Assembly (NCBI GenBank): GCA_030390025.1
Contig: CM059446.1
Coordinates: 15,190,001 to 15,254,000, forward strand
Direction: 5' to 3'
DNA length: 64,000 nt
DNA from: Squalus acanthias
Lineage: Eukaryota
Below, in pieces: positions 4,003 through 48,858 of this stretch. Both the position numbers and the translations under genes were made by a program. Under the pieces are notes generated by a model. That model was not told the origin of the DNA, made no database searches, and saw nothing but the letters and a program-made list of their open reading frames with translations. The first letter of the stretch is position 1. Every line of letters begins with the position of its first letter.

Positions 4003-4978
4003 TCATAGACTCATACAATAGTACAGCACAGAAGGAGGCCATTCGGCCCATCGAGTCTGTGCTGGCTCCTTGGAAGAGCAATCCAGTTAGTCCCACTCCC
4101 CGGCTCTTTCCCCATATCCCTGCAATTTTTTTTCTCCTTCAAGTATTTATCTAATTCCCTTTTGAAAGCTACCATTGAATCTGTATCCACCACCCTATCA
4201 GGCAGTGCATTCCAAATCCCAACCACTCGTGGAGTAAAGAATTTTTTCCTAATGTCGCCTCGGGTTCTTTTGCCAATCACCTTAAATCTGTGCCCTCAGG
4301 TTATCGACCTTTCAGCCATTGGAAACAGTTTCTCTTTATTTACTCTATCTAAACCTTTCATGATTATAAACACCTCTATCAAATCTCCTCTTGGCCTTCT
4401 CTGCTCCAAGGAGAACAACCCCAGCTTCTCCAGTCTATCCATGTAACTGTAACCCCTCTTACCTGAAACCATTCTGGGAACTCTCTTCTGTACCCTCTCC
4501 AAAGCCTTCACGTCCTTCCAGAAGTGTGGTGCCCAGACTTGGACACCATACTCCAGCTGGAGCTGAACTAGTGTTTTATAGAGGTTTATCATAACTTCTT
4601 GGCTTTTGCACTCTATGCCTCTATTTATAAAGTCTATAACCTGGTGTTGTGCGACCTCTCTATTTATAAAGCCTAGGATCCCATATGCTTTATTAACTGC
4701 TTTGTTAACCTATCCTGCCACCTTCAAAGATTTGTGCACAAACATCCCCATGTCCCTCTGTTCTTGCACCCCCTTTGTAAAATGGTACCATTTAGCTTGT
4801 ATTGTCTCTCCTCATTCTTCCTACCAAAAATGTATCACCTCACACTTTTCTACGTTGAATTTCATCTGTCCACCCATTCCACCAGCTTGATTGTCTTCTT
4901 GAAGTCTATTACTATCTTCCTCACTTTACTACACTTCCAAGTTTTGTGTCAAATGCAAATTTCAGAATTGTGCCCATT
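4003..4978 (-). mobile_element. CR1 LINE 3' fragment (older family) with a small nested insertion
   Basis: ORFs 4011..4280 and 4296..4592 give the CR1 RT C-terminus (LYKTLVQLQLEYGVQVWAPH, FFTPRVVGIWNALP); same family as 28774-29990. Confidence 0.9.
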
Positions 4979-6599
4979 CTAATCAGTGTTGATGTACAAC
5001 CAAACCTTGTGCTCGGTATTAATTTCAAAAGGTCACATGGTGGTCAGGTATGTCAATTGGTGCTTTCTGATGAATGGCAGATTCAAGTTGATATGCTCTC
5101 TGGAGCGCAAACCAGTTGGATGTGGCCATTAACAACTGTGAAGCAAAATGTAGCCTGGCCATTGTTGAATTGCCATCCTCATGATGGCAATTCAAGTCAG
5201 AAGTTGGGAGAGTGGGTCACTTGGGGGTAGACTGTTTATGAATTCATCAGAATTTGAGAGGCAAAAGGGAATCATTAGCAGAAAATAGATGGTAGCCTGT
5301 ATCTACAAAATAACCTTTCTGTTGAGAAGTCGTTCTTCCCAAAGATTTTTGGAAGTATTGCATCTGATTTCAAATCTTGAGATCTTGCTTCTGCCAGATT
5401 TGAATGTTGGCTCAGTTCTAGCAACTGCGCCATCGAAAGAGACTGGTACAGCTTGTTAATTACCTGCTCATTCAAGAATGATTCTTGGATATCTTGTCAA
5501 TGCTGCGTAACATTTGCAATTTTGGCTGGAAATGACCAGTTTGCCTAAAGGTGTAAATATATTGTGCACTGAGTCAAAACTCACTGGATAAGTTTGATTT
5601 TTGCAGTTCTTCTTTGTGACGAAAGTAGAGGCTGATTTGGCCTGTGTTTTTGTAGATTGACGGCGAATTTGTTTGGCAGTACAATGCTTAACTTCCTCTG
5701 AAGGATCTTCTCTGATGGCAGGTGCACTGAACTAATTTTATACTGCTGGTATGCAACTGTGCATAACCAATGAGTTGCAAACCCTTTTCTGGACTTCTCG
5801 AGCAAATACTTAAGGTCATCTGCTTTCCGACAGAGTTGTTGGAAGGATCTGTCACAGTAGATGACTGATGTTGACAGTTGGTGTGGAATAAATTATTTTT
5901 AAAATGTAGTCTGTCTGTCTTCATGATCTCAGTGAACCCATGTTGTGCATCTTTTTAAGAGGGTCTGCAGGCTTCTGCAGTTTGCTGTTAATTTGGTTCA
6001 TATGTGCGCATAGAGTGGGTTCACTCTGCCTCTGAGACACGGTTTAAAATTTAAATGCCACCAATTCAGCTTCTGCTTTCACTTCTGCTTCTCCTTCCTT
6101 CCTTTTCCCTCTTCCCAGAATTATCAAATTTTACCTTTGCAGAATAGGTAAACATCTTCCATACACAAAAAAAAAGTTGCATTTAAAGTTCACTTTTTTA
6201 ACTTGCTGGCTTTTTTTCTTCCTTTTGTTCAATTCATAAACCGTCTTGTGCTGCAGGTTAGCAATTATTTTGAAATGATTTTAATTGCAATTCACAGACC
6301 TTATTTAAAATAACAAAATAAGCAGAGGGAGTCAGAGGTATTCGTGAACTCACTTCAGGTCTCATTTCTGCTGCTCGCCTTGCCTCTCTGGCAGTTTTTT
6401 CTTTGTTCAAAATTTCACCCACTTCTATCCGTCCTGACTTTTTTTAAAAAGTGCTAATTGTTTATTGCCTTCTCAAACCCCACGATGATGTTTTCCCCAC
6501 TGATATTTCTTAACTATTGCACCAAACAACTCCTGATCCTTAGTGTTTTCAGCCTTCATTTAAAATCCTCTTATTTCCTCTCCTCTGAATCTTCTCTGC

Positions 6600-7475
6600 T
6601 TTCAAACTCAATCTACTGCGACCCACATCCATGGCTACCCCTTTGATATCATTATGCAAAGCCTTGCCACTGAGATTTTGATTATCAGCCAGACTATTTC
6701 AGATTACAGTACTTCTTTGACTCCCTTATTATCCATATTCTTCCCTGCCACCCCACTCTAAACTCCATACTCTCAGCCTTGATTCTATCTCCCTTCCCAG
6801 CTGCTCACTCAGGATGAACCAGATGGTGCAAAACCTTGGTGTCATGTTCATTCTTCAGTTATGTCTCGAACCCCACACCCTATCCATCACCAAGCCTGCT
6901 TACTTCCACCTCATGCTATATGGCTTGCCTCCACCCTTGGTTTCCCCCTGCTGCTGCTGATCTCCTTATCTGTACTTTGTTACCTCCAGTCTTGACTGCT
7001 TCAACATCCTCCTCGCCAGTCCCCCATGCTGTACTGTACACAAATTGTACTTGTCTGCATTTTGTCATATTTGTTCATCACTCCTGTCTTTGCAGACTTC
7101 CATTCACTTTATGTCCCCCATCATAGCAAATTCAAAATCTTTGTCCTTGTTTACAAATCCCCCACTGCCATGCCTTACCGTAGCTCTGCAACTTGCTTCA
7201 TTCTCCTGTTCCATGCTGTGCTCTTCAGTCCTCTAAATTCTGGCCTGCTGGATCTTTCTTCCCCTCCTCCCCTAGCCCTTGCTCTGCTGTACCATTGGTG
7301 GCAGAGTCTTCAGCCTTCTTGGAACTTTCTGCCTGGACCCCATTGCCTTTAAAAGCTACCTTTTCAGCCATGCTTTCGATCACCTGTCCTAACTCTTCTA
7401 GTACTGCTTGGTGTCTGGTTCTGCCCTGTGAAGTACCGTGGCATGTTTCTGCAGTAAAGGCATTTATTAATTATT
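6600..7475 (+). mobile_element. decayed L2 LINE fragment
   Basis: C/T-rich; resembles the L2 copy at 37905-38490 (ttcaaaatctttgtccttgtttacaaatcc, ctctaaattctggcct); boundaries approximate. Confidence 0.6.
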
Positions 7476-10251
7476 AATCGTTAACGCCACCAATCCAATG
7501 ATCCCTGATGAGATTGGAAGCTCACTGGGGAATTGTGTCAGAAACTCTTTAAACTTGGTCTGTGGCGCATGCATGTCAGTACTATAATACGTGAAGCTGT
7601 CATCAAGTGCTGTGTTTACAATGTGAAATACATGCTTGTATGAAGCCTAGCAACTTGATATTCACAGACTAAAATGGTTTTCTAGCACATGTAATGGTGG
7701 ACTATTTCAAAAGAACTAGTATGTTGCTGCTTTGGGCTTGATGTAGCCCCTGAGGAATGGTTGGTATGCTGAAGGTTCTGTTTAATGTGCTAACCTTCAA
7801 ATTCGAAACCATCACCTGATATGGTGCTGCGTGTTCAGTACCTTCATATTCACAATGGATGTGCTGTTTTCATTTAAACCTTTTGTGCAACAAATAGAAA
7901 TGGGGCATTTGTTTGCTGTGTTAACTGTTCAACTTTCTGAATAGTGCCTTGACACCATAATAACGTAAAGCACTTAACCAGATTTTCACCGAGCTTCACA
8001 ACTGACTTGCTCCTTTCTTTCATCAAACTCTTGATATTATTTTCAAAAATGGGCATTCTGGGAGCTGTCTGTGCATTTCAACATAATGGTATTCGATGTG
8101 AACTCTGGTTCAGTTGAAGAAAATAACTTTCATTGCCTTGTTAATAACTCATTCAGAAATTTGAAGCGATGAACTTGTGTTATCCTCAAGAACTAGTTAA
8201 ATTTATTAATCTTATGAAACGGTTTAATTTTGAACAAAAATCTCTACATACCTATTTTTTGACTTATTTTTCCCTATCTTTTGGTGAAGAGACAATTACC
8301 TGATTTTAGTTAGATTCGAGGTCAAGGTGGCAGAGAACACGAGAGCTGGCTTGATCTCAAGACTTCGGAACTCGGGCGCTAACTACATACGTTTCCTTTT
8401 TTTTTTTTTCCTCCCTGCCCCAGGCTTTGCCTACTGTCTGAAATGTGCCTTGGTGCATGAGGGAAATTGTTGGGGAATCAAGATTATAATGCATTCAGTT
8501 TACTAGGCCCTATTGCTATTAGTACCATTGCGATTTGTCTAACTTTTTTAAAATTCTGGAGTAATTGTAGTTGTAGGTGGTGGTTACAGCACTATTATAG
8601 TGTGTAACGCAGAGAGTTCAGAGAAAATCAAGAGTTCTGTTCAGTTATTTGGCGAATTATTTGTCATCTTCCAGTGCTGTTTGAAACTTGTGGCTCGGTT
8701 TAAATTGGTGATGCTGGCAGGATGTTGTTTGAATCTCAACTTGAATTATACGGTAGTGGTTCTTAATTTGTGATCTGGTAAACTTCAATTTGCCAAGTAT
8801 TCCACTCAACAGTTGGGTTCATGAACATTCAGAATTTAATGCTGAATTGGTGGCAATTAAGTACAAAGGAATAATTGCTAATTTTTGTAAAAGATTTGAC
8901 TCTGTATTTGGATGCTTGGCTTCAATAGACAAAAATGAAGTGAAAAAATAATATTTGGTTTTCCTTTTGAGGAACAATGATCATTGCCTAAAATAACTAA
9001 AATTCTCATTGTTAAAATTTGGGGTTTTTGTCGGACTTTCTGTTGCTCTTGGTTCCGTAAGCAGATTTGAGGCCTCGATGATTGCGAACCTGCATATTTT
9101 TCTTTGTATAGCTTATCTTGCCTAGCAGAGTTTTGTGATTTCTACGATCAACAATGATCCACATGTATTAATCTGTTTACTGGATTAATCAGTTTTGAGT
9201 TGTGTAGCATACAAAGTACTGTAGATGGATATTGCACAATGACCAGAGTTTCCACAGGTTAACGTAACTAAATAGATTTATTTACAATTCAATGGAAATA
9301 TGAAGCACGACAGAGTTTGGCAGGTACTATTTAGTACAATTATAATTGAACAAAAGTATAAGTGGTAAGTTAATAATTACCCCTTTCAACTCTTTGGTAA
9401 TTAAAGTCTTGGGATTCACAAATTCTGGCTTTCTATGACCTCCCCAAACTGAAAGATATTACAGTTTTAAGCTGTTGGGTATCAGCGGCCTCCTTTCTGG
9501 CAAATCTTAATGGTTTACATTCATAGGATAATTGCAAAACATGATGAATGTTAATGCCTTGGCAAAGAGGTGCTCACAGATGTTTATGGGTTCCTGTGTA
9601 AACAGATGTTTAATTATATTGTATTTCAAAAATGCAAAAGCCATGGTCAATAATTTAAATACATTCTATACACTGGCAAGGATTTCTCATGATCCAATCA
9701 ACAAGAATGAGTGTCTACGAGAAATCATTACGTATTCAGAGCTTCTGGACATTTGCAAAGATAAAAAGCTTTAGTCATGCACAATACAGGAAATTTTGAT
9801 GTCTAGCAATTTAAAACAGCAGCCACGGTTTGATTTGATTTTAAATGGATTTGAGCAAGATCCACTGATTTGTAACAAACTAGGGAGGAGAAAAACTCCA
9901 AGCAAGAGATAAATTGACTAGATTCCGCCTTGGTGGCCCCCAAAAAAGTAAAACATCCAGGAATGTTCAACCAAACCTTTGAACATGTATTTTTAGTGGC
10001 ACATTCCACAGATGATATGTAAAACACAAAACTGCCTAACTTCACTGGCTTATACTGTAAAGTAGAGTTTGATGTTTTAGCAATTGTAAACATGAATTAA
10101 ATCAAAACTGATTTAAGATGTCAGATAGAGTAAAACTGGATTAAAAACTTCATATGAAATCAGATTAGATAAGTGTTGTGGATTTTTCCTCCCCACTTTT
10201 TAAAAAATGTTCGAACTTTTTATCACCATTCTGGGGATTCTAGTAAATTTT

Positions 10252-11200
10252 GAAACATAGAAACATAGAAGATAGGAGCAGGAGTAGGCCATTCGGCCCC
10301 TCGAGCCTGCTCCGCCATTCGATGAGATCATGGCTGATCATCTCAACTCAGTACCCTGTACCTGCCTTCTCCCCATATCCCTTGATACCTTTAGCTTTAA
10401 GAAATATATCTAACTCATCCTTGAATATATTTAATGACTTCGCCTCAACTACCTTCTGTGGTAGAGAATTCCACAGGTTCACCACTCTCTGGGTGAAGAA
10501 ATTCTTCCTCATTTCTGTCCTAAATGGTTTACCCGCTATCTGTAGATTATGACCCCTGGTTCTGGACTCTCCGACCATCGGGAACATTCTTCCTGTATCT
10601 AGTTTGTCCAGACCTGTCAGAATTTTATATGTTTCGATGAGATCCCCTCTCATTCTTCTATACTCCAGTGAGTATAAGCCCAATTGACCCGATCTCTCCT
10701 CATATGTCATTCCTGCCATCCCAGGTATCAGCCTTGTGAATCTTCGCTGAACTCCTTCCATGGCAAGAACATCCTTCCTCAGATAAGGCGACCAAAACTG
10801 CACACAGTACTCAAGGTGTGGTCTCACCAAGGCCCTGTACAACTGCAGCAGGACATCCCTGTTCCTATACTCAAACCCTTTCGCTATGAAGGCCAACATA
10901 CCATTTGCCTTCTTCACCGCCTGCTGCACCTGCATGCTTACTTTCAGCGACTGGTGCACAAGGACACCCAGGTCTCGTTGCACTTCCCCTTCTCCCAATC
11001 TATTGCCATTCAGATAATAGTCTGCCTTTCTGTTTTTGACACCAAAGTGGATAACCTCGCACTTATCCACGTTATATTGCATCTGCCACGCTTCTGCCCA
11101 CTCACCCAACCTGTCCAGATCATCCTGGAGTTTCTCGGTATCCTCCTCGCAGCACACACTCCCACCCAGCTTTGTGTCATCTGCAAACTTGGAGATATTA
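10252..11200 (-). mobile_element. CR1 LINE, 5'-truncated, young
   Basis: ORF 10348..11292 is open from KFADDTKLGG to the C-terminus GYGEKAG; 3' UTR hairpin region and (TTTCTATG)n tail. Confidence 0.95.
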
Positions 11201-11519
11201 TAATGTGATTGTAATATGGAATGGCACTCAAACCTGCCACCACTGAAGCAGGTAACAGTGCAAAATTGGCCTGTGAAGATCAAATATCTCAAAATCCTGT
11301 TCGAATGCTCAATGTACTTTGAGTTTGTAACTTAAATTTGAAATAGGCTACATACTTTGAAAATGAACTTAATTTCTGAGTAGCGGAGCACCAGAAGGGT
11401 CTATTCTCAGTTCCCTGCTGTTCACAGTATTTGTAAGTGATATGATGGAGGATGGTTCTTTTAATATTACAGATTTGCTGATTACACTAAACAGCAGGCA
11501 GTGAGTATAAGAGACATTG

Positions 11520-11935
11520 GTATTTAGCAGGATCTGGACAAATTAAGCATAAAGCATAATGAACAGCAGATGGATTTTAATGCAGATAAAGGTAAGGCTA
11601 TGAATATTGTAATGGGGAATGTAAAATGTGCATGACACGATGGTTGTCTGTGAACAATAGTGGAAAAGAATTTGGGTGTAATAAGACGTAAAAAGTTTCT
11701 AGTGAACTTAATTCTGACTAACTGCATGTTTGGTCGTCTCTAAAGAGCATTTGACTTCAAATCAAATTATGATGCCATAGATTTTTGATGAAGTTGTTTT
11801 GGAATATTTTGTACTCCAGCCCTGATGTTTTCAAAAAGAGCCTGATGTGTTGGAGAGTTCAGAGAAGGTCATTAGAATGATTGAGACTGACAATTCTAAG
11901 TAATGAAGGGAGACTCCCACAACTGGACTTGCTTA
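11520..11935 (+). mobile_element. very decayed CR1 RT fragment
   Basis: remnants of QQDLDKL, QMDFNADKGK, EKNLGVI and VQRR-like segments; boundaries approximate. Confidence 0.5.
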
Positions 11936-13560
11936 TTTTTATATCCGACAAATGTGCACATCTCCTTGATGGGGAAGGATACTGTATGTTTGGTTTTTAG
12001 AGCACTATTTCATTCAGCTTTAGAATGGACACATACGTAATTGCTGGAACCAAGTTCATGTCGCTGTTGAAAAGCAACAGGCCAGGATTGCGTAATGTTG
12101 ATGTTGGTATCTATAGGTATTCTGGAGATTGTCTTGATTTATCTTTGGGGGAGGTGGGGTCAGAGAAAATTGTTCAGAAATTAGATTAGCTAAATAGGGT
12201 AGAACCCATGATTGGTAGATTGTACATACTTCATAGAATGAGTAGGTTAATGGCCCAAGTGGCTGTTTGTTTCTTGTTCTGTGCTTTAAATGTTTATGGC
12301 GCCATTGCTTTTGAAAACTATTGAATGTCGTTGTTAAATGGAAAAACTGGCAAGAATCTACCAAAATTCAGAAAGAATAATTACTTGAGTATTTTCCACA
12401 CATTCATTATGTTGGCACACAATTTGGATTAAGGAACATCAAAGGTGACTTTCAGAGGAATTCGAGGATTATTGAGAATCTTTGTGTGGAAAGGAAAATA
12501 TTTGATCCTGATACTTAGATTAAACAATATCAAATGCTTCTGAGTTTCTTAAAAGAAACATTTTTTTAAAATGGCAACCAAACATTTTGTAAACTCCACC
12601 ATCTCTTATGGTACTACTCAGGCGGTGAGGGGGGTGGTGGGGAAGTGTGTTTCCGATCTGAAATGGGAGTGTTTTAATCAGAAAAGTGTGACTCTTATTT
12701 TCACTACACAGATATTTAAAATGTGATACCGTATACGCAAGACTTTAAATAGATTTGTATCCTTCTTGAAAATAACCAGTCAGTGAAATCACTTGTTAAA
12801 GTGCTATAGATTAATGACGTTTGTTCTGAACCGCATAGTGTGCTTGATTCCCATCTGTTTTTAATTATGTTAATTCTAAAAATGAGATGACTGCAAAACT
12901 GATACAGACCATTAACTTTAGACTGTAAATGGAATTTTGTGTGTAAACATGGGTGTTTGCTAATTTGAACAGTTATATTATAAAACTATGGAATTGCATA
13001 TACCCTGTATCACTTTTTTGGAATTTTTTGATCCTTTTTTCCCCACAAGATTTGGCATTCAGTTCTATTTCAAGATTGTGTTTTTAAAACATTGAATTTT
13101 AAAAAGCCACAGATTACAGACTCCAACAGAGGGGGGAGGGGCTTGGCATGTTAATTTTAAAGGTTGCCAACAACTGGAGACATTAAGTAATTTATTATTT
13201 CATCTCAGCTGACCTAAAGACATCCACACCTATTCTGGTGGGGATGATTCTATTCATGTGAGCCCAGCACGAGGTGTCTGCTGAGAATATCTCTTATGAG
13301 AGAGGGTAGTTAGTCGGTTGACCGGCCTACTGGTGAATCACTGAACGAGGACGCAGTCGGAGGCACAGCCCTTCCATTTCCTGTGCATGCAAAGAGAGAG
13401 ACTTATGGGTAGTCAGTGAATCAGGATCAGGAAAAGTTAAGTGAGCTACTAATGTGGTGTATTTCTATTGTTCATGAGGGTTCTGTACTTGTATCAGTGA
13501 GATTTGATTACAACTGTATGTTCACTTGCTGTATGTAAAATAAAGTGGCTTAATGATGGC

Positions 13561-13920
13561 CCTGTCTATCTCTCTATAACCTTCTCCAGCCCTACAACCC
13601 TCAGATCTCTGTGCTCCTCCAATTCTGGCCTCTTACATATTCCCCCCTTTTCATCGATCCACCATTGGCGGCCGTGCCTTCAGTTGCCTTGGCCCTAAAC
13701 TCTGGAATTCCCTCCATAAACCTCTCTACTCCTCTCCCCTCCTCCTTTTAAGACGCTCATTAAAACCTACCTCTTTTGACCAAGCTTTTGGTCACCTGTC
13801 CTAATATATCTCTACGTGGCTCGGTGTCAAATTTTGTCTGATGTTCTTGTGAAGTGCCTTGGGATGTTTTTGGGACCATTTTTCTACATTAAAGGTGCTA
13901 TATAAGTGTAAGTTGTTTTT
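13561..13920 (+). mobile_element. L2-clade LINE 3' fragment
   Basis: homologous to 852-1214 with the same tail. Confidence 0.8.
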
Positions 13921-14203
13921 CAATCTGCCTCCAGAAAGATTGGAGAATCACACAAGGCGGAACAGGGGACATATTTGGAACTCCTGAATAATTTCATGAA
14001 GTGATTGTCTACTTGTACCCCCTTCCCCCATTTTTGGAGGACCACTGAAATGCCTTTGGTTAAGTCTGCAGCAACAAGAACAACTTGCATTTTTATAGAG
14101 CCGTTAACGTGAGTGTGCAGCCTATAATGCTGTCATAAAATGGAAGAGCACGGAAAGTGGAGAAAAAGGGTCAAAAAGCAGGGGGAGGAGAAATCCATTT
14201 TAT

Positions 14204-14971: not shown

Positions 14972-15584
14972 ACGTATTGCACACTTCTTATCTGCACACT
15001 TATTTTCCGTGTCACACTTTTCTCTCTTGGGTATTGCTGTGTATACTTGCATTATACTTAACTTTCAATCCTCCCAACACCAGGCGCTCCTCCAAGCTGT
15101 TTCCTAGTTCTGCTTGTCTAGGTGGCACTGTAGGTAATTCTTTAATTAATTAAATTTTATTCCCTGGGCCAAATAACTGCAGGTAGGATTTTAAATTTAA
15201 TTTGCCTGTCCCATTCACCCCAGGCCCACCTTGATGTCCTTTTCTCCACCGACATTTGGCTGTGATTCTGCTGCTTCCCATGCTGCCCCTCAAGTCATCT
15301 TCCATCCTTTCCTGATCCCCCTTGGGCCTTGGATGTGCGGGCTCACCTGTTGGCAATGTTGTCTGCCTGCCCTCATCCCATGATCCGCCTATTCATTGGT
15401 TTCCTGACACTAACCTGAGAATAGGCAGTTTATACCTAATGCTTATAATGGTGAGGGGGGCCAGAGAGAGAGGGCAGTAGAGAAGAAGGAAGAGCAGCGT
15501 ATGGCGAGTGAGGCAAGGAGCGACGAGGGGCCTGGTATGGGGTGATTGTTGATGCACTAATAAGTCAAGTCAAAATAAAGTAAT

Positions 15585-15825
15585 ACGATAGCAAAATACT
15601 GCGGATGCTGGAAATCCGAAATAACAACAGAAAACGCTGGAAAAACTCAGCAGGCCAGGCAGCATCCGTGGAGAGAGAAAGAGAGTTAACGTTTCAGGTC
15701 GATGACCTTTCATCAGAACTGATCAGTTCTGATGAAAGGTCATCGACCTGAAACGTTAACTCTCTTTCTCTCTCCACGGATGCTGCCTGGCCTGCTGAGT
15801 TTTTCCAGTGTTTTCTGTTGTTATT
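15585..15825. mobile_element. Penelope-like element relic with inverted terminal-repeat arrangement
   Basis: 105-bp inverted arms (15618-15722 / 15723-15827), hammerhead cores, 15-bp flanking direct repeat TCAAAATAAAGTAAT at 15570-15584 and 15826-15840; homologous to 46533-46669. Confidence 0.85.
15725..15761 (+). ncRNA. minimal type I hammerhead ribozyme motif (mirror copy on the - strand at 15684-15720)
   Basis: AGTT-CTGATGA-A-AGGTC atc GACCT-GAAA-CG-TT-AACT: stem I, CUGANGA core, stem II, GAAA, palindromic ACGU stem III, GUU triplet. Confidence 0.8.
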
Positions 15826-16183
15826 TCAAAATAAAGTAATGCTTTGCAGAGTTAATGTAATTGTTAACTTTTTAAATGTGTTGTCAACAAGGCTTATGTG
15901 GTGCTCAGGCTATTAAAGATGGATACGATTATAAAAAAAAAGTTGATGGCCTATATAATACAGGCTGGTTTGCTTCTGCGTTATTCTGGGAAAAGCCATG
16001 TGGTTGGTAGGTGGTTTTCCTGAAATTATAAATATCCTTTGTGTGAGCGTGTTCGATATCTGTTCAATCCCACAATGCTTATTTTCAAGTTATCATCTAG
16101 TCCATTGGCATTGTGCACGGTGATAAAAGTGTATGATGAATATTATAAGTAACTTTATTTATTTATCTATCTATCTGTTTCAG

Positions 16184-16627: not shown

Positions 16628-19241
16628 CATAAGAACATAAGAAATAGGAGCAGGAGTAGGCCATTCGGCCCCTTGAGCCTGCCCCGCCATTCAATGAGAT
16701 CATATCTGATCTTGGCCTCAACGCCACTTTCCCGCCTGCTCCCCATAACCCTTGATTCCCCTGTAGCTCAAATTTTTGTCTATCTCTGCCTTGAATATAT
16801 TCAATGACTCCGCCTCCACAGCTCTCTGGGGCAGAGAATTCCAAGGATTCACGACCCTCTGAGAGAAGAAATTCCTCCTCCATCTCCGTTTTAAATGGGC
16901 GACCCCTTATCCTGAAACTGTGCCCTCTAGTTCTAGATTCCCCCACGAGGGGAAACATCCTCCCTGCATCTACCCTGTCCAGCCCCCTCAGAATCTTATA
17001 TATTTCAATAAGATCACCTCTCATTCTTCTAAACTCCAATGTATAGGCCCAACCTTTCTTCATAAGACAACCCCTTCATCTCAGGAATTAACCTAGTGAA
17101 CCTTCTCTGAACTGCCTCCAATGCAAGTTATACCCCTCCTTAAATAAGGAGACCAAAACTGCACGCAGTACTCCAAGTGTGATCACACCAGCACCCTGTA
17201 CAGTTGTATCAAGACTTCCCTACTTTTATACTCCATCCCCCTTGCAATAAAGGAAAACATTCCATTTGCCTTCCTAATTACTTGCTGTACCTGCATGTTA
17301 ACTTTTTGTGTTTCATGTACGAGGACCCCCAGATCCCTTTGTACCGCAGCATTATGTAGTCTCTCTCCATCTAAATAATAATTTGCTTTTTTTATTTTTC
17401 CTACCAAGTGGATAACCTCACATTTTCCCACATTATACTCCATCTGCCAAATTTTTACCCACTTGCTTAACCTATCTATATCCCTTTGCAGACTCTTTGT
17501 GTCCTCCTCACAACTTGCTTTCCCACCTATCTTTGTATCCTCAGCAAATTTGGCTAAAGTACACACGGTCCCTTCATCCAAGTCATTAATATAGATTGTA
17601 AATAGTTGAGGCCCCAGCACTGATCCCTGTGGCACCCCATTAGTTACAGTTTGCCAACCGGAAAATGACCCATTTATCCCGACTCTTTGTTTTCTGTTAG
17701 TTAGCCAATCCTCTATCCATGCTAATATATTACCCTCAACCCCGTGAGCTCCTATCTTGTGTAGTAACCTTTTATGTGGCACCTTATCGAATGCCTTCTG
17801 GAAATCCAAATACAGTACATCTACTGGTTCCCCTTTATCCACCCTGCTCGTTACATCCTCAAAGAACTCCAGTAAATTTGTCAAACATGATTTCCCATTC
17901 ATAAAACCATGTTGACTCTGCTTGATTGTATTATGATTTTCTAAATGTCCTGCTATTACTTCCTTAATAATGGATTCCAGCATTTTCCCAATGAGAGATG
18001 TTAGGCTAACTGGCCTATAGTTTCCTGTTCTTTGCTTCCCTCCTTTCTTGAATAGGGGCGTTACAAATGTGGTTTTCTAATCTGCTGGGACTTTTCCAGA
18101 ATCCAGGGAAATTTGGTAGCTTACAACCAATGCATCCACTATCTCTGCAGCCACTTCTTTTAAGACCCTAGGATGTAGGCCATCAGGTCCAGGGGATTTG
18201 TCAACCTTCAGTCCCATTAGTTTGCCTAGTACTTTTTCTCTCGTGATGGTCATTGTTTTAAGTTCCTCCCTCCCTATAGCCCCTTGATTATCAATTATTA
18301 TTGGGATGCTTTTAGTGTCTTCTACTGTAAAGACCGATTCAAAATATTTGTTCAAAGTCTCTGCCATTTCCCTGTTTCCCATTATTAATTCCCTTACTTT
18401 AGCTACTCTCTTCCCTTTTATATACCCGTAGAAGCTCTTACTGTCTGCTTTTATATTTTTTGCTAGTTTACTTTCATTATCTATCTTCTCCCTCTTTTTT
18501 TAGTCATCCTTTGCTGGTTTCTAAAAAATTCCTAATCCTCTGGCCTACCACTAATCTTCGCAACGTTGTATGCCTTTTCTTTCAATTTGATACCATCCTT
18601 AACTTCCTTAGTTAGCCACGGATGGTTCATCCTTCTCGTCGAGTCTTTCTTTCTCGCTGGAATAAATCTTTGCTGAGAGTTATGAAATATCTCCTTAAAT
18701 GTCTGCCACTGCTTATCTGCCGTCTTACCCTTTAATCTATTTTCCCCGTTTACTTTAGTCAACTCTGTCTTCATACCTTTGTAATTGCCTTTATTTAAGT
18801 TTAGGACACTAGTTTCAGACCCAAGTTTCTCACCCTCAAACTGAATTTGAAATTCTATCGTGCTATGATCACTCTTCCCTAAAGGATCCTTTACTTTGAG
18901 ATCATTAATTAATCCTGTCTCATTACACATTACCAGATCTAAAATAGCCTTCTCCCTGGCTGGTTCCACAACGTATTGTTTTAAGAAACCATCCCGAATA
19001 CATTCTATGAACTCGTCCTCAAGGCTACCCTTGCCAATTTGATTTGTCCAATCTATATGTAGATTAAAATCGCCCATGATAATCACAGTACCTTTCTTAC
19101 AAGCCCCTATTATTTCTTGATTTATACCCTGTCCTACAGTGTAGCTACTGTTAGGGGGCTTATAGACTACTCCCACTAGTGACTTCTTTCCCTTACTAAA
19201 AAGATTCCACCCAAACTGATTCTACATCTTGATCATCTGAG
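16628..19241 (-). mobile_element. CR1 LINE, 5'-truncated, frameshifted ORF2 (endonuclease part plus RT)
   Basis: ORFs 18532..19176 (IIMGDFN, SDH), 18077..18382 (KSPGPDGLHPRVLKE), 17183..17983 (DFQKAFDKV, GVPQGSVLGP, FAED), 16623..17063; (TTCTTATG)n tail. Confidence 0.95.
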
Positions 19242-19945: not shown

Positions 19946-20394
19946 CTATGAGAGGGGACAGGACAATTTAACCAGAAGGAAATACATTTTCTTGCAACCA
20001 TATCGAACAGTGGTGGGACACGGCTTGCTGATGATCAGAGTTGTTGTACTTCCTCCCTGAGGAGGTGAGTTGCTGGCTGATGATGTACATCTCCCAGTGC
20101 CTGCCAGAAAAATGGTGCTCAAGGCTTGGGAGTAGCTCTCGTGCACACTCACTAGGAGGAGTTAGACCACCTTTAATTTAATTGATTTTTTTTTAGTGTG
20201 TGGCTTTTATTTTAGGACATCCTACCCAAACTCATTCAATTCTACCTGCTTCCAAATCAGTTGAAGTATGATGGATGTTGCAGTGAGCTTTAACGCTGTA
20301 CCACATTGTGTTTGGCAAATTGGGTGTGGTTGATCAGAATTTCAGCTGCACTTTGCTTAACCTGTTCACATTTAAAATAGAAGTGCTACAACAC

Positions 20395-22033: not shown

Positions 22034-22509
22034 AAAGAAAGAAAGACTTGCATTTATATAGCGCCTTTCATGACCACCAGACATCCCAAAGCGCTTTACA
22101 GCCAATGAAGTACTTTTGAAGTGTAGTCACTGTTGTAATGTAGGAAACATGGCAGCCAATTTGCACACAGCAAGCTCCCACAAACAGCAATGTGATAATG
22201 ATGAAATAATCTGTTTTAGTGATGTTAATTGGGGGATAAATATTGGCCAGGACACCAGGGAGAACTTCCTTGCTCTTGTTCGAAATAGTCCCATAGGATC
22301 TTTTACGTCCACCTGAGAGAGCAGACGGGGCCTCGGTTTAACGTCTCATCCAAAAGATGGCACCGCAGACAGTGGAGCAGTCTCTCAGTACTGCACTGGA
22401 GTGTCAGCCTAGATTTTTTTTTTGTGCTCAAGTCTCTGGAGTGGGTCTTGAATCCACAACCTTCCGACTCCGAGGCAAGGGTGCTACCAGCTGAGCCACG
22501 GCTGATACC
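22034..22509 (-). mobile_element. full-length tRNA-derived Deu-domain SINE (SacSINE1/AmnSINE-related)
   Basis: on the - strand: A box GTGGCTCAGCTGG, B-box-like GGATTCAAGACC, core GGATGAGACGTTAAACCGAGGCCCCGTCTGC, L2-type tail ending in (CTTT)n. Confidence 0.85.
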
Positions 22510-24234
22510 GAGTTAAATTTTTTCCAATATGGTCATCAATTGCTGATAACCTGATGCGATTATGTGAATGCAGAGAAAACAACCAAGTTAGTTATGACTA
22601 CTTAGTAAGTGATGTTTGCACAGACCTTTTCTGTGCAATACCTAGTTAACCATTGTTGAACAAGATTTATGCATGTTAAGGTTGAATTTCAAATCCGTTT
22701 TGAAGCAGCTTTTATGCTAAGTTTAGAACTTTATTGTAAAAAGCAGTGTTTGGAGCATGTACACATTTTGGTCCTATTTATTGTACAAAATTATTAATAT
22801 CTTCATTATTTACTAAAGTAGTAAATAACTTAAAAAAAAATGTTTGATTGTACCCATGTGCTCAGTTGTCTAATGGATGGTGGGCATTAGGATTATGCAG
22901 TACTGAATAATCCAAGCAGGCCAAATTAGATAATCTGTTAGTGATTGCAACAAAAATAGCGCATTGTTAAATGTTCAATTTGTGGCACAGCATCCATTGA
23001 ATCCTAATATTATCGGTAGTGATAGACATTGAGGGCAGAACATCATCATTGCACTGACATTTTTGTTTTGGTTTTTAAATTCTGTATCTGGCTTTCTGGA
23101 AGTTAAAAATGGGTAGCTACATGAACTCCTGAGTTTCAGAATCCTGGATCTAGCCATAGGATGTAAAGAACAATATAAGGATTTGAAACTCTGGTGGACC
23201 ATGTGGCAATTAACATGTAATGGTAAGTTTCTGAAGATCTGTTGTCTCTGTGGTAAGCCATGTAAAATTATGTCTTGGAGTCCAAAAGAGAGACTGTATA
23301 ATTGAGTCTATGTAAAACATCTCTGCCTCCAAGACATTTGTGTAATGATGGATGCTGTTTCATATTACTGGGCACCACTGAGCAGAGAAAGGTATCTGGT
23401 ACTGTGCCAGCTCCTTGGTATTATGCCAGGTTCTCCGAGTAAGATCTGGCATTTGAGATTGGCTGGTGTTTAAAAATTGCTGGAGTGAGTTCTCAGCTGT
23501 TGCATGAATCTGTTCTTAGCCTGGTGGTTTTTCCTAATGGCTCCCTTTGCTGTGTGCATTTGCTGACCCAGCGCAGCTAGCAGAGGAATTTTGTTTACAT
23601 TATCAGGGATTGTTGCCTCAAAGGGCAACTCAACGGCTGATAAGTGGTGCAAAAATTTCCCCAAAATGGCACCATGTAGCAATTCAATGTTTGAGTGTAT
23701 TGTCCAGTTTGTAGTTCATTTTGCGTGTGAAGAGGGATGCAGGTATACTCTGGCTATCATTTGAGGGCACCCCCATAGAACGTATATCATTTCTACCATC
23801 AGTGGTGATGTGTGTGACCTGCTTTCAAACTGATTGGAGCTATCATTTTATTAAATCTGAGTCTTCTGCAGTTCTTGCTGACTATTTTAAAACCTACCTT
23901 AAGGCTGGCACAAAAGCTGATCAAATACATGGGGAGCAGATGCCATACCAAGAAAATGGAACTTTTGTAGTCAAGTAGTTGGCGTTGGTATGATTTTTAC
24001 CTATTAAAATATTTAAAATGTATCTCTCTTGCTTTTGGAGCCTTGTGATATCAATTTTGTTCCGTAAACAGTAGAGTGAACTAGTTGGGGGTGATGTCAG
24101 CTAAAAGCCTCTAACAGTAGTATTCCTGACCTCGCATGTCCAGAGCCAAATCATAGGTTTTATTATTTATGTTACGTCCATCTGTAAAATGACCATTAGT
24201 GTATTAATTGAGCATTTTTCTTAATCATACACAG

Positions 24235-24385
24235 GGTTGAAAATGCCTGTACTAAATTGATCCAGGCCGCACAGATGCTGAAAGACAATCCATATGCTGT
24301 ACCTGCACGTGATTACCTCATTGATGGTTCCAGAGGTATTCTTTCTGGAACTTCAGACTTGCTCTTGACATTTGATGAAGCAGAG
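24235..24385 (+). CDS. vcl: vinculin exon 3 (151 nt)
   Basis: acag|G...GAG|gtattt; [50 protein letters not shown]; Y100 equivalent retained. Confidence 0.97.
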
Positions 24386-24494
24386 GTATTTATTTATGAA
24401 AACTAGTTTCGCTCTTGTGCATAATGTATATGACTTTTGTTGAGTCTATCTGTGTAACTATGCCATAGGTTTATATGCTATGTGTCGCTTTTAA

Positions 24495-24650
<156 letters not shown>

Positions 24651-25122
24651 TAGGAATTCCATTTTCTTGAAGTCGAGTTATTTGTAAAGCAACACATGCA
24701 AATTAAACTACTCTAAGAAACTTTCTGAGGAATGCTTTATTTTAAGGAGGTAAAGTTGTGACTTATAGGCATAGAGGAAATGTTTATGCTGCAAAACCAG
24801 AAACTGAAATTATCCCATAACTTCCAGTTGTTATCATTAACACCAGATGCATAAATGTGCACTGTGGATGAACCTTGAGTTAGTATTAACCAACGACCGC
24901 CTTTCAAGATTTGTAATATTGGAAATCTAATTACAGGATTTATATTTTAGTACAGCCAATGTTCACAATACATGTATTGCATCATTTAGAGTGTTTTGTG
25001 TATCGTAATTACACAAGAACAACTTGTATAGTATGTACTGTCTAAATATGACTCTCATTTCTGTTTTAATGGTGCTGCAATTGTTGCTTCTCTTCCCTTC
25101 TTTCACTCCCACCCCCAATTAA

Positions 25123-25251
<129 letters not shown>

Positions 25252-26305
25252 TAAATGTTTTTTTCAGTTTGATAATAGCCAAATGCCTGGCGCTGTCTTT
25301 GAATTAGACTTTCTGACTGTCAAACTCCATCAGTATGAATAGATTATGAAAATACTTATCAGTCATGATATTTTGTGCTCCCTATCCCTTCTTTGTAGCC
25401 TTCAATCCCCTTTGTAGCCTTCAATTTTGCTTATCGGTTATAATTCGAATCCATATTTCTATGGTGTTGACTTAGTTAAATTTGTATTGAACCGAAATAA
25501 AGCTCTTGCTTGGATAAATTGCCTTTAGAACTGTAAGTTGCATTGCTCTGCCTTGATATAACTTGTGTTTATTAACTTAAAGTTTCTATTTTTTGCACTC
25601 AGAATTGAGTTAAATTTTGTTCAAAGATTGCACCCATTTGGTTTGATTTTCATGAAGGTATTTCATTAGAATGGGAGTCACAAACCCAGAGAAGATGGAA
25701 GAATATCAATGAATAAATAGAAAGCCATAACTGTAGGTTACAATATATGGAAGATGACAATGAAAGTAATATACAGGTGTCAGATAAGTTTAATTGAGTA
25801 CCTTTAGCATCTTTCATTTTCTATGGATAGTCAGTACTGTGTTGGGAATTGAGAAGCACTAAATCGTGCAGAAAACACTCTACCTGGAAATTCAGTGTCG
25901 CCACAATTGTTGAATAAAAGTGGTTCGCTAATGATGGAGATGAAAACAAACATTGCAAGTGCTCAAAATACAGAGCCGGTTCATCAGCATAGTTCAGAAA
26001 AATAGAAGGAACTGGTTAATATTTTGGGTGAAGACCCTTTTGGAACATTCTGAAATATTAGCCTGATTTTTCTCTCCATCACACACTAATGACCTGCTGT
26101 GTCTTTTCAGTATTACCTGATGTGAAATATAGCTGTGCTATTATCAACTTATCAAAAACTGGTTAAGTAGCAACTGAAATCAAGGCTGTATTCAATTGCT
26201 GTAACGTACTGTTACGGTACAAAGGATATGTGCAAGTGTGTGGTTGTGGTAGTACTCATTTACATATAGCTTTAAGTGTCACGCTTTTACATTTTCATTT
26301 TGCAG

Positions 26306-26466
26306 CTATTAAGATTTTTGTGACTACGAAACAGTTCAAAAGCCAAGGAGTGGAAGAAGCCCTAAAGAACCGTAATTTCACTGTGGAAAAGATGAGTACT
26401 GAAATCAATGAGATCATTCGTGTGTTGCAGCTAACATCCTGGGATGAAGATGCTTGGGCTAGTAAG
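26306..26466 (+). CDS. vcl: vinculin exon 6 (161 nt)
   Basis: tgcag|CT...AAG|gtaggc; (A)[53 protein letters not shown]. Confidence 0.97.
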
Positions 26467-27272
26467 GTAGGCCTGAAAATCTTGGTAGGATATAATGCAA
26501 GTGCTGTGGAAGAAATTAGTGCTGAAGCTTTCATTTACTTCTCTATTGAAGTGTAATAAATTGTTCTCGTACAGTTTTCTTAATAGGACAGTCATTGGCT
26601 GGTTCTGGTTATATGTACATACCTACATTTGCGTGTTTGCAGTGTATGATCTTTCTGTAGCGTTTTTTTTTCATTTTTCACAGTTTTCACTTCTTGGATC
26701 TTGGTTCATTACAATTCCTGTTTTTATTATTTATTTCATTGGGCCACAGACAGTAGATTGTTTTTGAACCTTGCTTACTCACTTGGTATGCTGGGACATA
26801 GAAATCAGGATTAAATCTCAATTTCCATCTTAAAATACCAAATAGAATACCAATCCGTTATTTGATATTGGCAGGAGTAATATTTTTGTTTCCTGCACGC
26901 TGATGTATAATGGAATTCTTTTGCCCACTATGTGTATGTGTGTCTCCACAAAAGTCAAGTGCCTGCCTCAAGACAGGATGATGTATACCTTCTCTTTTGT
27001 TATGCATCAGCCAGCTGGTCCAAAAAAGAATGTGCAAATATAAATTTGGCAAGTAGCCAGATATGCTTATTACATTTTTATCTTTGTCATAAGTGTTACT
27101 GAAACAAAGTTACAAATCTCAAAAACCTTGTTTGTAAACTATCTGCTGTATTTTGTGGTCAAAATGTTACATGTTTTGAATGTTTTCTTTTGCACTCTTT
27201 TTCTTCTTTGTGACCATTACAAGCATCTTATTTTTACTTTCTTCCTTGTTTCTTCTCCGTTCTCCCTTGTAG

Positions 27273-27275
27273 AAG
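27273..27275 (+). CDS. vcl: candidate 3-nt alternative microexon (AAG, Lys) in vcl intron 6
   Basis: about 45-nt polypyrimidine tract, then tgtag|AAG|gtaagc; sits in a phase-0 intron so inclusion keeps the frame; no transcript evidence. Confidence 0.55.
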
Positions 27276-28114
27276 GTAAGCTCACTTTTGTTTTTCTCCG
27301 TTTTTCTGCTGAAGCATGTCCTGAACAAATGCTGTTTACCGCCTTGGTGTGTGATGCAGTTTGCTTCAAATAACGTTATGGCTAGCACATGCTGAACACT
27401 GTTCGTAAAATTCAACTTGCCGTTAGGTCACCTGTCTGGGGCTTTTTAACCACAAATCTCCCATGATTTGAACATGCCTCTTAGAGCTTTGAGAATAGAA
27501 CAGATTATAACATGATCTCTAAAATGACTTCGAATAAAGTTCTTTTCCAGCAAAAGTCAGGGTGAGGCGTAGCTGGAGGGGGAAGAAAGCTTGTTCATAA
27601 CCTCCACTAGGATCAGACATAAATTTCAATATCATAAACTATTTTCAGGACTTAAACAGAATAACATTTATCAAGAATCAGCTCTCCTGACTGGTTGGTG
27701 ACGTGCACAACCTGGTGTGGTATTGAGCCACATTGGACCAGTAAGGTCTTCAGTCTGTGATGAGCTTGTTGATCTAAGCTAGGGTTGCTTTATAGGTGCT
27801 GCAGTTGGTATTGGCTTCCCAAGCTTGTTGGGAGGAAAATTACACAACGTTCCTGCTCTTGGTCAAGTGACGACTCCTGGAAATGTGCTTATGTCCATGT
27901 CTGGTGAGAACAGGACTGGATTGTACTTTGGTGTGACACCTCCTACTGTTGGCCAGTGGGAGCAAGCAGGCTGTTCAAGCATGCACATGGAGAATGGTCT
28001 CTTCAGTGATTGAATACTGTTGATGCCAAAAAGATACCTTGGTATGGTTCGCACCTTAAACAGAGAAGGTGAGGGGGGGAGAAGTGGTCCCTCATAGTAA
28101 ACTTAAAGGCAGAG

Positions 28115-28672
28115 TTTTTTTTTTATTCGTTCATGGGATGTGGGCGTCGCTGGCAAGGCCAGCATTTATTGCCCATCCCTACTTGCCCTTGAGAAGGGGG
28201 TGGTGAGTCGCCGCCTTGAACCGTTGCTGTCCGTGTGGTGAAGGTACTCCCACAGTGCTGTTAGGGAGGGAGTTCCAGGATTTTGACCCAGCGATGATAA
28301 AGGAACGGCCGATATACTTCCAAGTCAGGATTGTGTGTGACTTGGAGGGGAACTTGGAGATGGTGATGTTCCCATGCGCCTGCTGCCCTTGTCCTTCTAG
28401 GTGGAAGAGGTTGCGGGTTTGGGAGGTGCTGCTGAAAGAGCCTTGGCGAGTTGCTGCAGTGCATCTTGTAGATGGTACACATTGCAGCCACGGTACGCTG
28501 GTGGTGGAGGGAGTGAATGTTGAAGATGGTAGATGGGGTGTCAATCAAGCGGGCTGCTTTGTCCTGGATGGTGTCGAGCTTCTTCAGTCTTGTTGGAGCT
28601 GCACTCATCCAGGCAAGTGGCGAGTATTCCATCACACTCCTTACTTGTGCCTTGCAGATGATGGAAAGGCTT
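28115..28672 (-). mobile_element. non-LTR retrotransposon 3' fragment (RTE-X/CR1-group-like), poly(A) tail
   Basis: ORF 28261..28707 KAQVRSVMEYSPLAWMSAAPTRLKKLDTIQDKAARLI; T-run at the left end is the A-tail; clade uncertain. Confidence 0.8.
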
Positions 28673-29385
28673 AATGTGTGTTTGCAGTACAGTGGAAGAC
28701 CAGTCATCAGAGGCTAATTACCCTTGCTGTGTATCTGGTCAACACTATTGTATTTTTACTTCAGTATCATTTTCATAGAATCATAGAATGAAACAGCACG
28801 GAAGGAGGCCATTTGGCCCATCGTTCCTGTGCAGCGCTTTGAAAGAGCTATCCAATTAGTACCACTCCCCTGCTCTTTCCCCATAGCCCTGTAAATGTTT
28901 CCACTTCAACTATTTATCCAATTCCCTTTTGAAAGGTACTATTGAATCTGCTTCCACCATCCTTTGAGGCAGTGCATTCCAGATCATTATAACTCACTGT
29001 GAAATTTTTTTTTCCTCATGTCGCCTCTCGTTCTTTTGCCAATTACCTGAAATCTCTGTCCTCTGGTTACTGACCCTTCTGCCACTGGAAACGGTTCCTC
29101 CTTTTTTGCTTCATCAAAACTTCATGATTTTGAACACCTCTATCAAATCTCCTCTTGACCTTCACTGCTCTAAGGAGAACAACTCCAGTCTCTCCACATA
29201 ACTGAAGTCCCTAATCCCTGGTACTATTCTAGTAAATCGCCTCTGTACCCTCTCCAAAACCTTGACATCCTTCCTAAAGTATGGTGCCCAGAATTGGACA
29301 CAATACTCCAGCTGGGGCCTAACTAGTGTTTAGAAAAGTTTAGCATAACTTCCTTGTTTTTGTACCCTATGCTTCTATTTATAAA

Positions 29386-29552
29386 ATTGAGAGGTCGCAC
29401 AACACCAGGTTATAGTCCAACAGTTTTATTTGAAATCACAAGCTTTCGGAGCTATCGATTGCTCCTTCCTCAGGTGAAGTAAATTAGATACAGAATCGCC
29501 AAAGCATATATAGATAGAGAACAAAGCATGTGTACCTTACAATTGCAGACCA
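29386..29552 (-). mobile_element. Penelope-like fragment nested in CR1
   Basis: flanked by direct repeat CTATTTATAAA (29375-29385, 29553-29563); carries a hammerhead motif. Confidence 0.75.
29436..29477 (-). ncRNA. minimal type I hammerhead ribozyme motif (second family)
   Basis: - strand: TCAC-CTGAGGA-A-GGAGC aatcgata GCTCC-GAAA-GC-TT-GTGA; palindromic AGCU stem III, CUU triplet. Confidence 0.78.
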
Positions 29553-32500
29553 CTATTTATAAAGCCAAGGATCCTGTATGCCTTTTTAACAGCTTTCTCA
29601 ACTTGTCTTGCCACCTTCAAAGACTTGTGTACGTACACTCCCGGGTCTTTCTGTTCCTGCACCTTCTTTAAAATTGTACCAATTAGTTTATATTGCCTCT
29701 CCTCATTCTTCCTACCAAAATGAATCACCACACTTCTGCGTTAAATTTCATCTGCCATGTGTCTGCTCATTTCACCAGTCTGTCAATGCCTCCTGAAGTC
29801 TATTACTGTCTCTCACTGTTTACTACATTTTCGAGTTTCATGTCATATGCAAACCGTGAAATAATGCCCCATATACCCAAGACCAGGTCATTAATAGATA
29901 TCCAACACCGACTCCTGGGGACACACCACTGCACACTCCAGTCTGAAAAACAACCATACACCACTACTTCCTGCTTTCTGTCCCTTTTTAATCAAACATC
30001 AGAACTTTTATTCTCACAAAATGGTGAGGCCCTGCCAAAACATAAAATTATTTAAAAACTTGTTATTGAGACTTTATCCTAAACTTCTGTGTGATTTTTT
30101 TCTTTCCCCCCCCCATTTTACTGGATTTATTTTTGAAGATCAGCATATAGGTACTTTGCAGAATATTGAACCGTGTGTTTCTAGTCATGTGCTAAAACAC
30201 TGCATCTCCTCTAAGTTAAATGTTTCAGACTGTCGTTAAATGTGAAGCCGCCTCCCCGCCCAAAAAAAATCAACTTGCTACACAATTACCACTCAATCTG
30301 TCAAACGTTTCACTAAATTTATTGCACACCAAAACTACACAAGCATTTAGCACGACTGCAGAATATAGTGTGTGCGCGATGAAATCGCAAGTATGTATTT
30401 TAGTGCCAAAAATTCTAAAACGGATGCAATAGGCAGCTCCTTTTTAATGTCTGTGTATTGAAGACACGTGAGCGATTTCTCTTTGATCTCTGTCAATGGT
30501 CTTCAAAGAGGCAGCTGGCTTAAACTTCCAATTAACATTGTTTGAGTTTTGCCTATTAACTGAAATCATCTTAACTCATTGAATAGAATGCAAAGAGAAG
30601 TTACTAAAATTCAAAATGTTGTGGGAATAGAAGGATAATTAGACAAAACATAAAATATAATTTTAAATGTTCAGCCTTTGTCCCTCCAGTGCTCCACAAT
30701 GAGGAATACTAGCTCCAGTCCCCCACTTGCTGGTAATGCCCTTTAGGTACTACCTGTTCGGTACAATGTAAAGGGGGCGTCAGTTTCTACTTTTTTGAAA
30801 TGAAGTAGTTTTGGTAATTTTCTGAAACTCTGAAAGGTTGTTGTAATTTGATCTTTTCCATTCACAGTTAGAAATCCTGTATGCATTATTCAGAAAGTAG
30901 CCTGGATTGCGTTAGTTCAGTTGTATTTCAGGGAAGAGATCCAGCCACTGAAATGTTTCCCCCATGTGTCAATCTACACACGCCTCGAAATTCATGGACT
31001 CCTTTGTATGATTTTATGAACACTGAATACAGTCTTCTAACTGTCTCATTACTTTTTTTCTCTTGAAGCCTTCAGGTTTGAGATTTTTTTTTTAAAAGCT
31101 ATTTAGTTATCTACCCAATTGAATATTTTTTCAATATCCATTTAAACTATTAAAAAGATTGACTTTGATTCTGCACAAAGTTTAGATATGGTGACTTTTA
31201 CACATTAATGTTGACCAGATATTGGGCAGGTATTTTTGATATCCGTTGACCAGCATGCACTTCTTGTATAATTCTTTATTGCATTAAAATAATGCTAAAA
31301 TTAGTGATACCGAGTAGAGTATCGGATTGGTTTATGCTGGTGTGCCTATTGCAATTAAACTTACTGACTGCAAGTGATTAGAATTAATTGAATTTGTTTG
31401 TTTCAAGCATTATCCTGTACCATTCATTTTAATGAATTTTTAATATTGAAACTAATTATGAAACATAATTGCCATGACTCTTTCTTACTGAGGGTATTTT
31501 ACTATGAGTATTGATCACTCATCCTCGTCAATCCTGCCCCATTCCATCTGGCCTTCAGGTTATGTACAGTAATAGAAACTGTAAGTTCACTATTATTGCC
31601 TCTCATTGTACCAAATAGTCCCATGGAAATCAACAGCACTTCTTCAGCCCATCAGTGTTAAGTGTCAGATTTGGAATGGGGTAATCCATGCTCATCTAAT
31701 GTTTGTTTAAAATGGCAGCTTCTACTGCCAACAATATCAAATTAAGGCATGAGGTTCTTTTAAGCACTTGCTCTGCCAACCCAATGTTTGGATTTTAGTT
31801 GACAATTGATAAATTATGTTGTAATACTTTTTAACTTGGTGTTCTACACCGAAGTAAGTATGTTTTGAAATGAAAGTATGTTAAAGCTACACAATTAGTG
31901 TACTTCACATCCATCTAAAAGCTCTTAATTTGTCTATTGGAAAAGAACCAGATGCTTTCCTGTGTTTTGTTGCTGCTCCACATGTTCTGCTTTAATTAAA
32001 AAGACACTGTTTGGATGAGCACTGCTTGGATGTCACAGCACAAGTTTGGTTGTGATGAATGGACTAGTGCTTACACCAGAATATTTTGCATGTTTGACCA
32101 AAGAAGGTCATGCTTGAAAAAAACAGATACCACAGAAATGTCTGGGCCTGGTTTGTTTAATAATCACAGGATGAAGTCTGTGCAAAATGCAATTTGCCTG
32201 CAAAAAAAATGAGCTACATTTCCTTTTGCAGCCAATGACACAGTGCAAAAATATGGAGAGAATCTGCCAAGAGGGCCTTCTTGGGTTGTACTTAGCCTAA
32301 GTTTGGCAAACTTTAAAACTTGTTTCAGAGAGCTCGGAAATGTAGTTTTTATGGTGTTAATTGATTATTGCCAAGTAAGTTGCTTCCCAAACTGCAAAAC
32401 CCTGAAAAAAATAATCTGGAAAACAAATTGACAAGTTAATATTTTTGGTTCATTTATGTATTTATTGATTTATTCATTTCATCATAAGATTGGTGCAGTT

Positions 32501-48489: not shown

Positions 48490-48858
<369 letters not shown>

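Follow-up and report, generated by a model that had tools for sequence, protein, structure and literature searches.

A site shared by two CR1-type fragments of a vinculin locus

We analysed 64,000 nucleotides of the Squalus acanthias genome (assembly GCA_030390025.1, contig CM059446.1, positions 15,190,001–15,254,000; hereafter the window). Introns and exons of a vinculin gene span the window (Pfam PF01044 matches at 26167–26556, 48490–48861 and 61516–61908), and fragments of long interspersed nuclear elements (LINEs) are plentiful in it. Two such fragments, A and B, are interrupted at the same site by inserts that share one terminus in opposite orientations; these inserts, and the Penelope-like element (PLE) family to which we assign them, are our subject. 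The evidence consists of the 64-kb window, public contigs of four sequencing runs aligned to the window, and published papers. Runs X1 and X5 come from one organism (organism A), X1 being possibly the source sample, and runs X6 and X21 come from other organisms. Summed contig depth is a rough measure, not copy number. The contig comparison covers 40 of 389 difference rows, 39 of which were used (a second letter at 29315 was omitted). The features at the two interrupted sites are as follows.

4003–4975, minus strand: CR1-type LINE fragment A, shortened at its 5' side and with its 3' end at 4003; carries the short insert, within a vinculin intron
4619–4632: target-site duplication A, left copy; 14 nt at its maximal extent, 10–11 nt once possibly element-derived bases are removed
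4633–4657, plus strand: short insert A; one unmatched T and the 3' terminus of a Penelope-like family
4658–4671: target-site duplication A, right copy; repeat of the left copy
28773–29990, minus strand: CR1-type LINE fragment B; right end as in the earlier note, homology to A demonstrated to about 29875
29375–29385: target-site duplication B, left copy; 11 nt
29386–29552, minus strand: insert B, a 5'-truncated Penelope-like end; 167 nt, 3' end at 29386
29553–29563: target-site duplication B, right copy; repeat of the left copy

An earlier note, made from the letters of this DNA, had described two homologous CR1 copies broken at one position, and its coordinates hold. Fragments A and B lie 24.8 kb apart, both on the minus strand, are identical at 752 of 919 aligned columns (81.8%), and are interrupted at the homologous alignment column. 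We take them to be CR1 elements, following that note. Both hosts retain only the C-terminal part of open reading frame 2 (ORF2). Elsewhere in the window, LINE ORF2 pieces match the frame at 4296–4709 in A at 35–66%, and two of them contain an RVT_1 domain. The insertion site lies in coding sequence of the hosts' CR1 family, at Phe-Ile-Asn codons; in the three further LINE copies of the window in which this stretch is present, the codons differ and TTTATAAA is missing.

Among the LINEs matched is an 807-amino-acid open LINE ORF2 stretch at 53744–56167 on the minus strand, with Exo_endo_phos (apurinic/apyrimidinic (AP) endonuclease) and RVT_1 domains, apparently a young copy. In host A, insert plus duplication amount to exactly 39 nt free of stops (13 extra codons), and the minus-strand LINE frame 4296–4709 reads through them. 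This is probably chance; host A is a truncated relic.

A shared terminus and coinciding duplications

The earlier note had reported that positions 4634–4660 are the exact reverse complement of 29389–29415, and they are, at 27 of 27 positions; about 3e-7 such 27-nt pairs would be expected by chance in the window. The terminus match reaches 3 nt (CTC) into the right duplication of A, and only 25 nt lie between the repeats. Both duplications lie where that note had placed them: duplication A is CTCTATTTATAAAG, maximal at 14 nt, and duplication B is CTATTTATAAA, maximal at 11 nt. The ends of the two inserts lie within 3 nt of each other, and both inserts have target-site duplications. Projected onto A, duplication B corresponds to 4621–4631; duplication A starts at 4619–4622 and ends at 4631 or 4632. 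The CTC at the A junction can be assigned to the element or to the target, and the next two letters are TA, as in the target, not the element's AAT. The two duplications agree to within 1–2 nt.

This agreement bears on the proposal of the earlier note that the target is palindromic TTTATAAA, which occupies 4624–4631. Recognition of TTTATAAA with a fixed stagger would, in the opposite orientation, give a mirror image, and a mirror image of duplication B about TTTATAAA would start at 4624 at least. Since the duplications A and B coincide and are not mirror images about TTTATAAA, that proposal is not supported in the form given.

Direct repeats of at least 10 nt within 700 nt form 78 pairs in the window, so a repeat of 11 nt does not by itself point to an insertion; no further short insert of the family was found among these pairs. 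We considered an assembly artefact and think it unlikely, as both sets of junctions are clean duplications in diverged hosts. None of the contig pieces listed spans the whole stretch and so confirms the locus itself.

The same CR1 site holds 32 other letters in one X6 contig, at a joint of 29380 to 29553. These letters agree with the 3' terminus of a different LINE family of the window (16641–16670, minus strand) and are followed by the target start; in this one X6 contig, the left edge of the CR1 site thus seems to have served for an unrelated LINE as well.

Probably two insertions rather than one

Comparison of the two copies with each other and with the contigs supports two independent insertions, as the earlier note had favoured, over the alternative that it had given, in which one ancestral inverted-repeat PLE insertion in a master CR1 was copied along with its host and later shortened by a different deletion in each of A and B. 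A single ancestral insertion would accord with the frequent arrangement of PLEs as inverted repeats inside one duplication (PMC3846280, in its available part), seen also in element C of the window (below), and with the minority letter that both inserts have at 29393. We nevertheless find it hardly credible. The inserts are identical in their shared 27 nt and the hosts differ by 18%; had the terminus decayed at the host rate, this identity would have P = 0.004. Among the difference rows listed, host B (392 nt) has 21 positions at which 75% or more of the X1 depth disagrees with it, as against 0 in insert B (167 nt; Fisher P = 0.0009), which has only three shared polymorphisms among these rows (38%, 66% and 45%). 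Of these 21 positions, A agrees with the majority at 20 and with B at only one, so that by this test the two do not share a branch. Each deletion, moreover, would have had to end cleanly at one duplication.

The majority form of the CR1 family is empty at the site, which also argues against an insertion in a master copy. Contigs join 29374 to 29553 in X1, X6 and X21, and the consensus of loose ends equals the CR1 sequence at 29553 (193 records in X1, 261 in X6) and at 29385 (272 records in X6). By identity and private changes, the inserts appear younger than their host copies. The X6 and X21 contigs cover the CR1 flanks and leave 29500–29539 uncovered; we did not use this gap as evidence of age, because contigs show presence, not absence.

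An abundant family with a putative hammerhead

The insert family is an abundant, 5'-truncated repeat family in both runs of organism A. Contigs of X1 and X5 cover the whole of insert B at high summed depth that declines away from the 3' end; in X1 it falls from 5.2 million at 29400–29419 to 1.3 million at 29520–29539. When mismatches were allowed, a scan of the window still gave no third terminus of the family, and an exact-pattern scan for the terminus gave 0 matches in viral contigs, metagenome contigs and prokaryote genomes.

The earlier note had called a hammerhead motif in the longer insert, and a motif scan with folding places one there:

29436–29477, minus strand: minimal hammerhead motif; architecture as in PMC4209133

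The candidate has a helix I of UCAC/GUGA, the core CUGAGGA, an unpaired A, a 5-bp helix II, GAAA, and a palindromic AGCU in place of helix III, and would be cut after CUU at 29440. Rfam, at E values up to 1, gave six matches in the window, all below the gathering score and none a hammerhead; five of them lie on element C's palindrome. The predicted fold is no more stable than shuffles (z −0.32). The call consequently rests on the core letters and the two helices. In the available part of PMC4209133, the minimal hammerheads of metazoan PLEs likewise have a helix I of 4–5 bp, an unpaired base 5' of helix II and no helix III, and occur mostly as single motifs in truncated copies, as here; helix II is 7–8 bp in Schistosoma families, compared with 5 bp in insert B. 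The words "shark" and "Callorhinchus" are absent from the text available of that paper. No pseudo-long terminal repeat (pLTR) arrangement is visible in A or B, which are single truncated ends, and insert A is about the size of a tail.

A second Penelope-like family in the window

The window contains another Penelope-like insertion, to which the earlier note had linked A and B through the hexamer ATAAAG in its duplication:

15570–15840, strand not assigned: element C, another Penelope-like family; inverted arms and a 15-nt duplication, structure as in PMC3846280 and PMC8557442 (available parts)

Element C consists of two 105-nt inverted arms (15618–15827) that adjoin each other without a spacer and are 99% complementary. 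Only one of the arms has a 33-nt extension, and there is a minimal hammerhead on each strand. Its duplication (15570–15584/15826–15840, 15 nt) overlaps the element by 2 nt. It has the inverted pLTRs and the optional 30–40-bp tail characteristic of PLEs, and appears to be a young, typical inverted-repeat PLE insertion. Its family differs from that of A and B, because the best local match between its sister copy and insert B is 8 nt. The sister copy (46346–46669) is 97% identical over 137 nt (46533–46669) and has a hammerhead at 46538. If 46329–46344 and 46671–46684, which differ by a 2-nt gap, are a decayed duplication, as is possible, the insert would be about 320 nt long.

ATAAAG is indeed present in the duplication of element C. 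We rejected it as a link to A and B: the families differ, 180 of 6821 AT-rich 15-mers of the window (2.6%) hold the hexamer, and the sister copy at 46533–46669 adjoins sequence without ATAAAG.

How narrow is the choice of target?

Both termini of the insert family in the window occupy both CR1 sites in the window. The probability of such a double match depends on what counts as an available site: it is 1e-5 to 2e-4 if 107–437 AT-rich sites are equal, 0.007–0.008 with 16–18 sites, and 0.33 with the three TTTATAAA sites. Across 185 genome windows it is 0.002–0.03 for 107–437 sites, and the windows examined may be more. These figures speak for a preference tighter than AT-richness in general, short of proving it.

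They are also what stands against a plainer account, in which two independent insertions reflect a generic liking for AT-rich DNA and the double match is a coincidence between two abundant families, picked out by the scan. Simple AT-rich targets are reportedly favoured by PLEs (PMC11167929; PMC3846280, available part), the insert family is abundant, the flanks of a sibling family in X21 are mixed and A/T-rich (agreement 0.42 among 288 records), and many pairs of repeat and element could yield a coincidence of this kind. We consider this account unlikely, given the low probability of the double match, per window and over 185 windows, and the agreement of the duplications to within 1–2 nt.

At the other extreme, the PLE could be dedicated to this CR1 site in the manner of Tx1- or R2-type LINEs. 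Both termini in the window are found here (2 of 2), and two of three independent TTTATAAA sites are filled. The earlier note had likewise proposed an element that repeatedly enters a CR1 family, a claim that rests on two copies. The majority CR1 is empty, and most termini of the family appear, from rough depth, to lie elsewhere. Outside the duplication the X1 depth is 50,315 at 29373 and 184,869 at 29575, against 1,115,897 at 29387 and 2,493,455 at 29393 on the terminus, again a rough measure. The CR1-flank share of the terminus depth is at most about 2–5% (B orientation) and 7–17% (A orientation) in X1, and 2–4% (B orientation) and 4–12% (A orientation) in X5; these shares are upper bounds, as the numerators include empty CR1 copies. 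Dedicated CR1 targeting is unlikely, because most termini, by this rough depth, do not continue into the CR1 site, and a wholly dedicated element on the Tx1 or R2 pattern we regard as very improbable.

Tx1L and like target-specific elements insert almost only at their target and in a single orientation. By contrast, both orientations are found here, A and B being opposite, and most termini are apparently elsewhere by rough depth. Repeated use of one position in a multicopy sequence is a point of likeness to Utopia-type target-specific non-LTR elements (PMC4640811, available part).

Proposed staggered nicks and a possible choice of primer

We propose, with a probability of about 0.6, that the same PLE 3' end inserted twice after the divergence of the host copies, in opposite orientations, through an endonuclease with a likely preference for this AT-rich site, which it would cut with the same staggered nicks. 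Each time, one pair of staggered nicks would flank the 10–11-nt core (C)TATTTATAAA in the context (C)TATTTATAAA(G), and reverse transcription could start, close to the end of the element RNA, from either of the free 3' ends. In A the bottom-strand end would prime and 27 nt would be copied, with up to 3 nt of microhomology; in B the top-strand end would prime and 167 nt would be copied. The outcome would be a single duplication with inserts facing either way. Many copies offer the site, since it belongs to the coding frame of a CR1 family, and the multiplication of a good target by a successful LINE would suffice for repeat insertions. The element itself would not be dedicated to CR1.

The way in which PLEs cut their targets and seal them again is as yet poorly understood (PMC11167929; PMC8557442, available part). 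For PAc, which belongs to the Poseidon clade of PLEs and comes from Anolis carolinensis, the purified protein favours AT-rich DNA and both cleaves and extends the two strands; a dimer is predicted (PMC11167929). Its two-strand cleavage and extension fits insertion in either orientation at one site. The insert family resembles PAc in having a putative hammerhead upstream of the 3' terminus and an AT-rich target. The PAc data differ in kind, consisting of a preferred cut at 5'-ATT-3' on one in vitro substrate with homology-free priming (PMC11167929), whereas here there is a genomic footprint alone, with two orientations and one duplication.

The endonuclease-positive (EN+) Penelope elements of Adineta vaga, according to the available part of PMC3846280, also nest in other retrotransposons and have AT-rich targets, and their inverted pLTRs with an optional 31-bp tail are matched by element C. 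Their duplications are 8–10 bp, compared with a maximal 11–15 nt here, and that part of the paper reports no repeated use of one host-element site in both orientations. Our literature search found no report of a PLE using one CR1 site in both orientations; subscription papers and supplements lay largely outside it. An AT-rich preference, short duplications, nesting in retrotransposons, inverted structures and two-strand cutting are already known for PLEs. The case is most likely a neat example of a known PLE habit, not a new targeting system.

Insert A could instead record the repair of a staggered break, with 27 nt copied by way of the TTTATAAA palindrome from the B junction, 25 kb away, or from a similar junction. 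The reverse-complement match is prolonged across the junction (36 of 38 columns, 4634–4670 versus 29415–29378), A and B have the minority letter at 29393 in common, and the shared site would be explained without any target preference. Repair would, however, require a staggered break at exactly this site together with an inverted template. The prolonged match follows from the palindrome alone, and sharing a letter found at 30–34% is not rare. Target-primed reverse transcription leaves very short 5'-truncated inserts with a duplication, which is what A presents. We therefore judge repair copying to be quite improbable.

Several points weigh against our proposal of two PLE insertions at a preferred site. 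It is built on only two insertions; the site motifs were defined after the fact, and it was for this coincidence that the window had been selected. The Fisher figure is weakened by the difference rows beyond those listed and by a bias of the contig alignment towards matching letters. The shared letter at 29393, held by 30–34% of organism A depth, fits a common subfamily, but also the copying of A from B. The true 3' end of the family is blurred, with X1 depth halving from 2,493,455 at 29393 to 1,115,897 at 29387, and possible microhomology blurs the nick positions. The anole PLE protein primes without homology to the cut DNA (PMC11167929), so the 3-nt microhomology in A may be chance. No frame for a reverse transcriptase or GIY-YIG endonuclease that could belong to the terminus was found by Pfam among 49 of 57 stop-to-stop frames of at least 100 amino acids; the matches were to LINE reverse transcriptase, AP endonuclease and vinculin only, with one weak match below the cut-off. 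The label "Penelope-like" is accordingly derived from the hammerhead and from the pattern of insertion.

A stricter version, which we hold to be doubtful, is that the PLE endonuclease reads approximately C-[A/T]10-G and makes a fixed 10–11-nt staggered double cut before the primer is chosen, with orientation random and the duplication set by the DNA. If so, the Phe-Ile-Asn codons of one CR1 family would be a genome-wide hot spot, and the filled copies would map PLE nicks and primer choice in vivo at single-base resolution. A multicopy target used in both orientations is a natural experiment on PLE cutting and sealing: if many filled copies share one duplication whatever their orientation, the target would place both nicks before priming, as in the dimer model of the anole protein. 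PLE presence/absence markers may also be homoplastic at favoured sites in such genomes. With two events, the locus is an illustration and not yet a result, and the coinciding duplications are its most notable part.

Other features of the window

The vinculin-matching frame at 61516–61908 contains an acidic run, D10, which we take to be typical of the metavinculin insert. Several collinear exact repeats of 11–14 nt, spaced about 661 nt apart, lie at 35156–35911 and suggest an old tandem duplication, either of a vinculin intron-exon unit or of a repeat. A 340-nt element at 52637–52976 has perfect 30-nt terminal inverted repeats and is probably a young non-autonomous DNA transposon.

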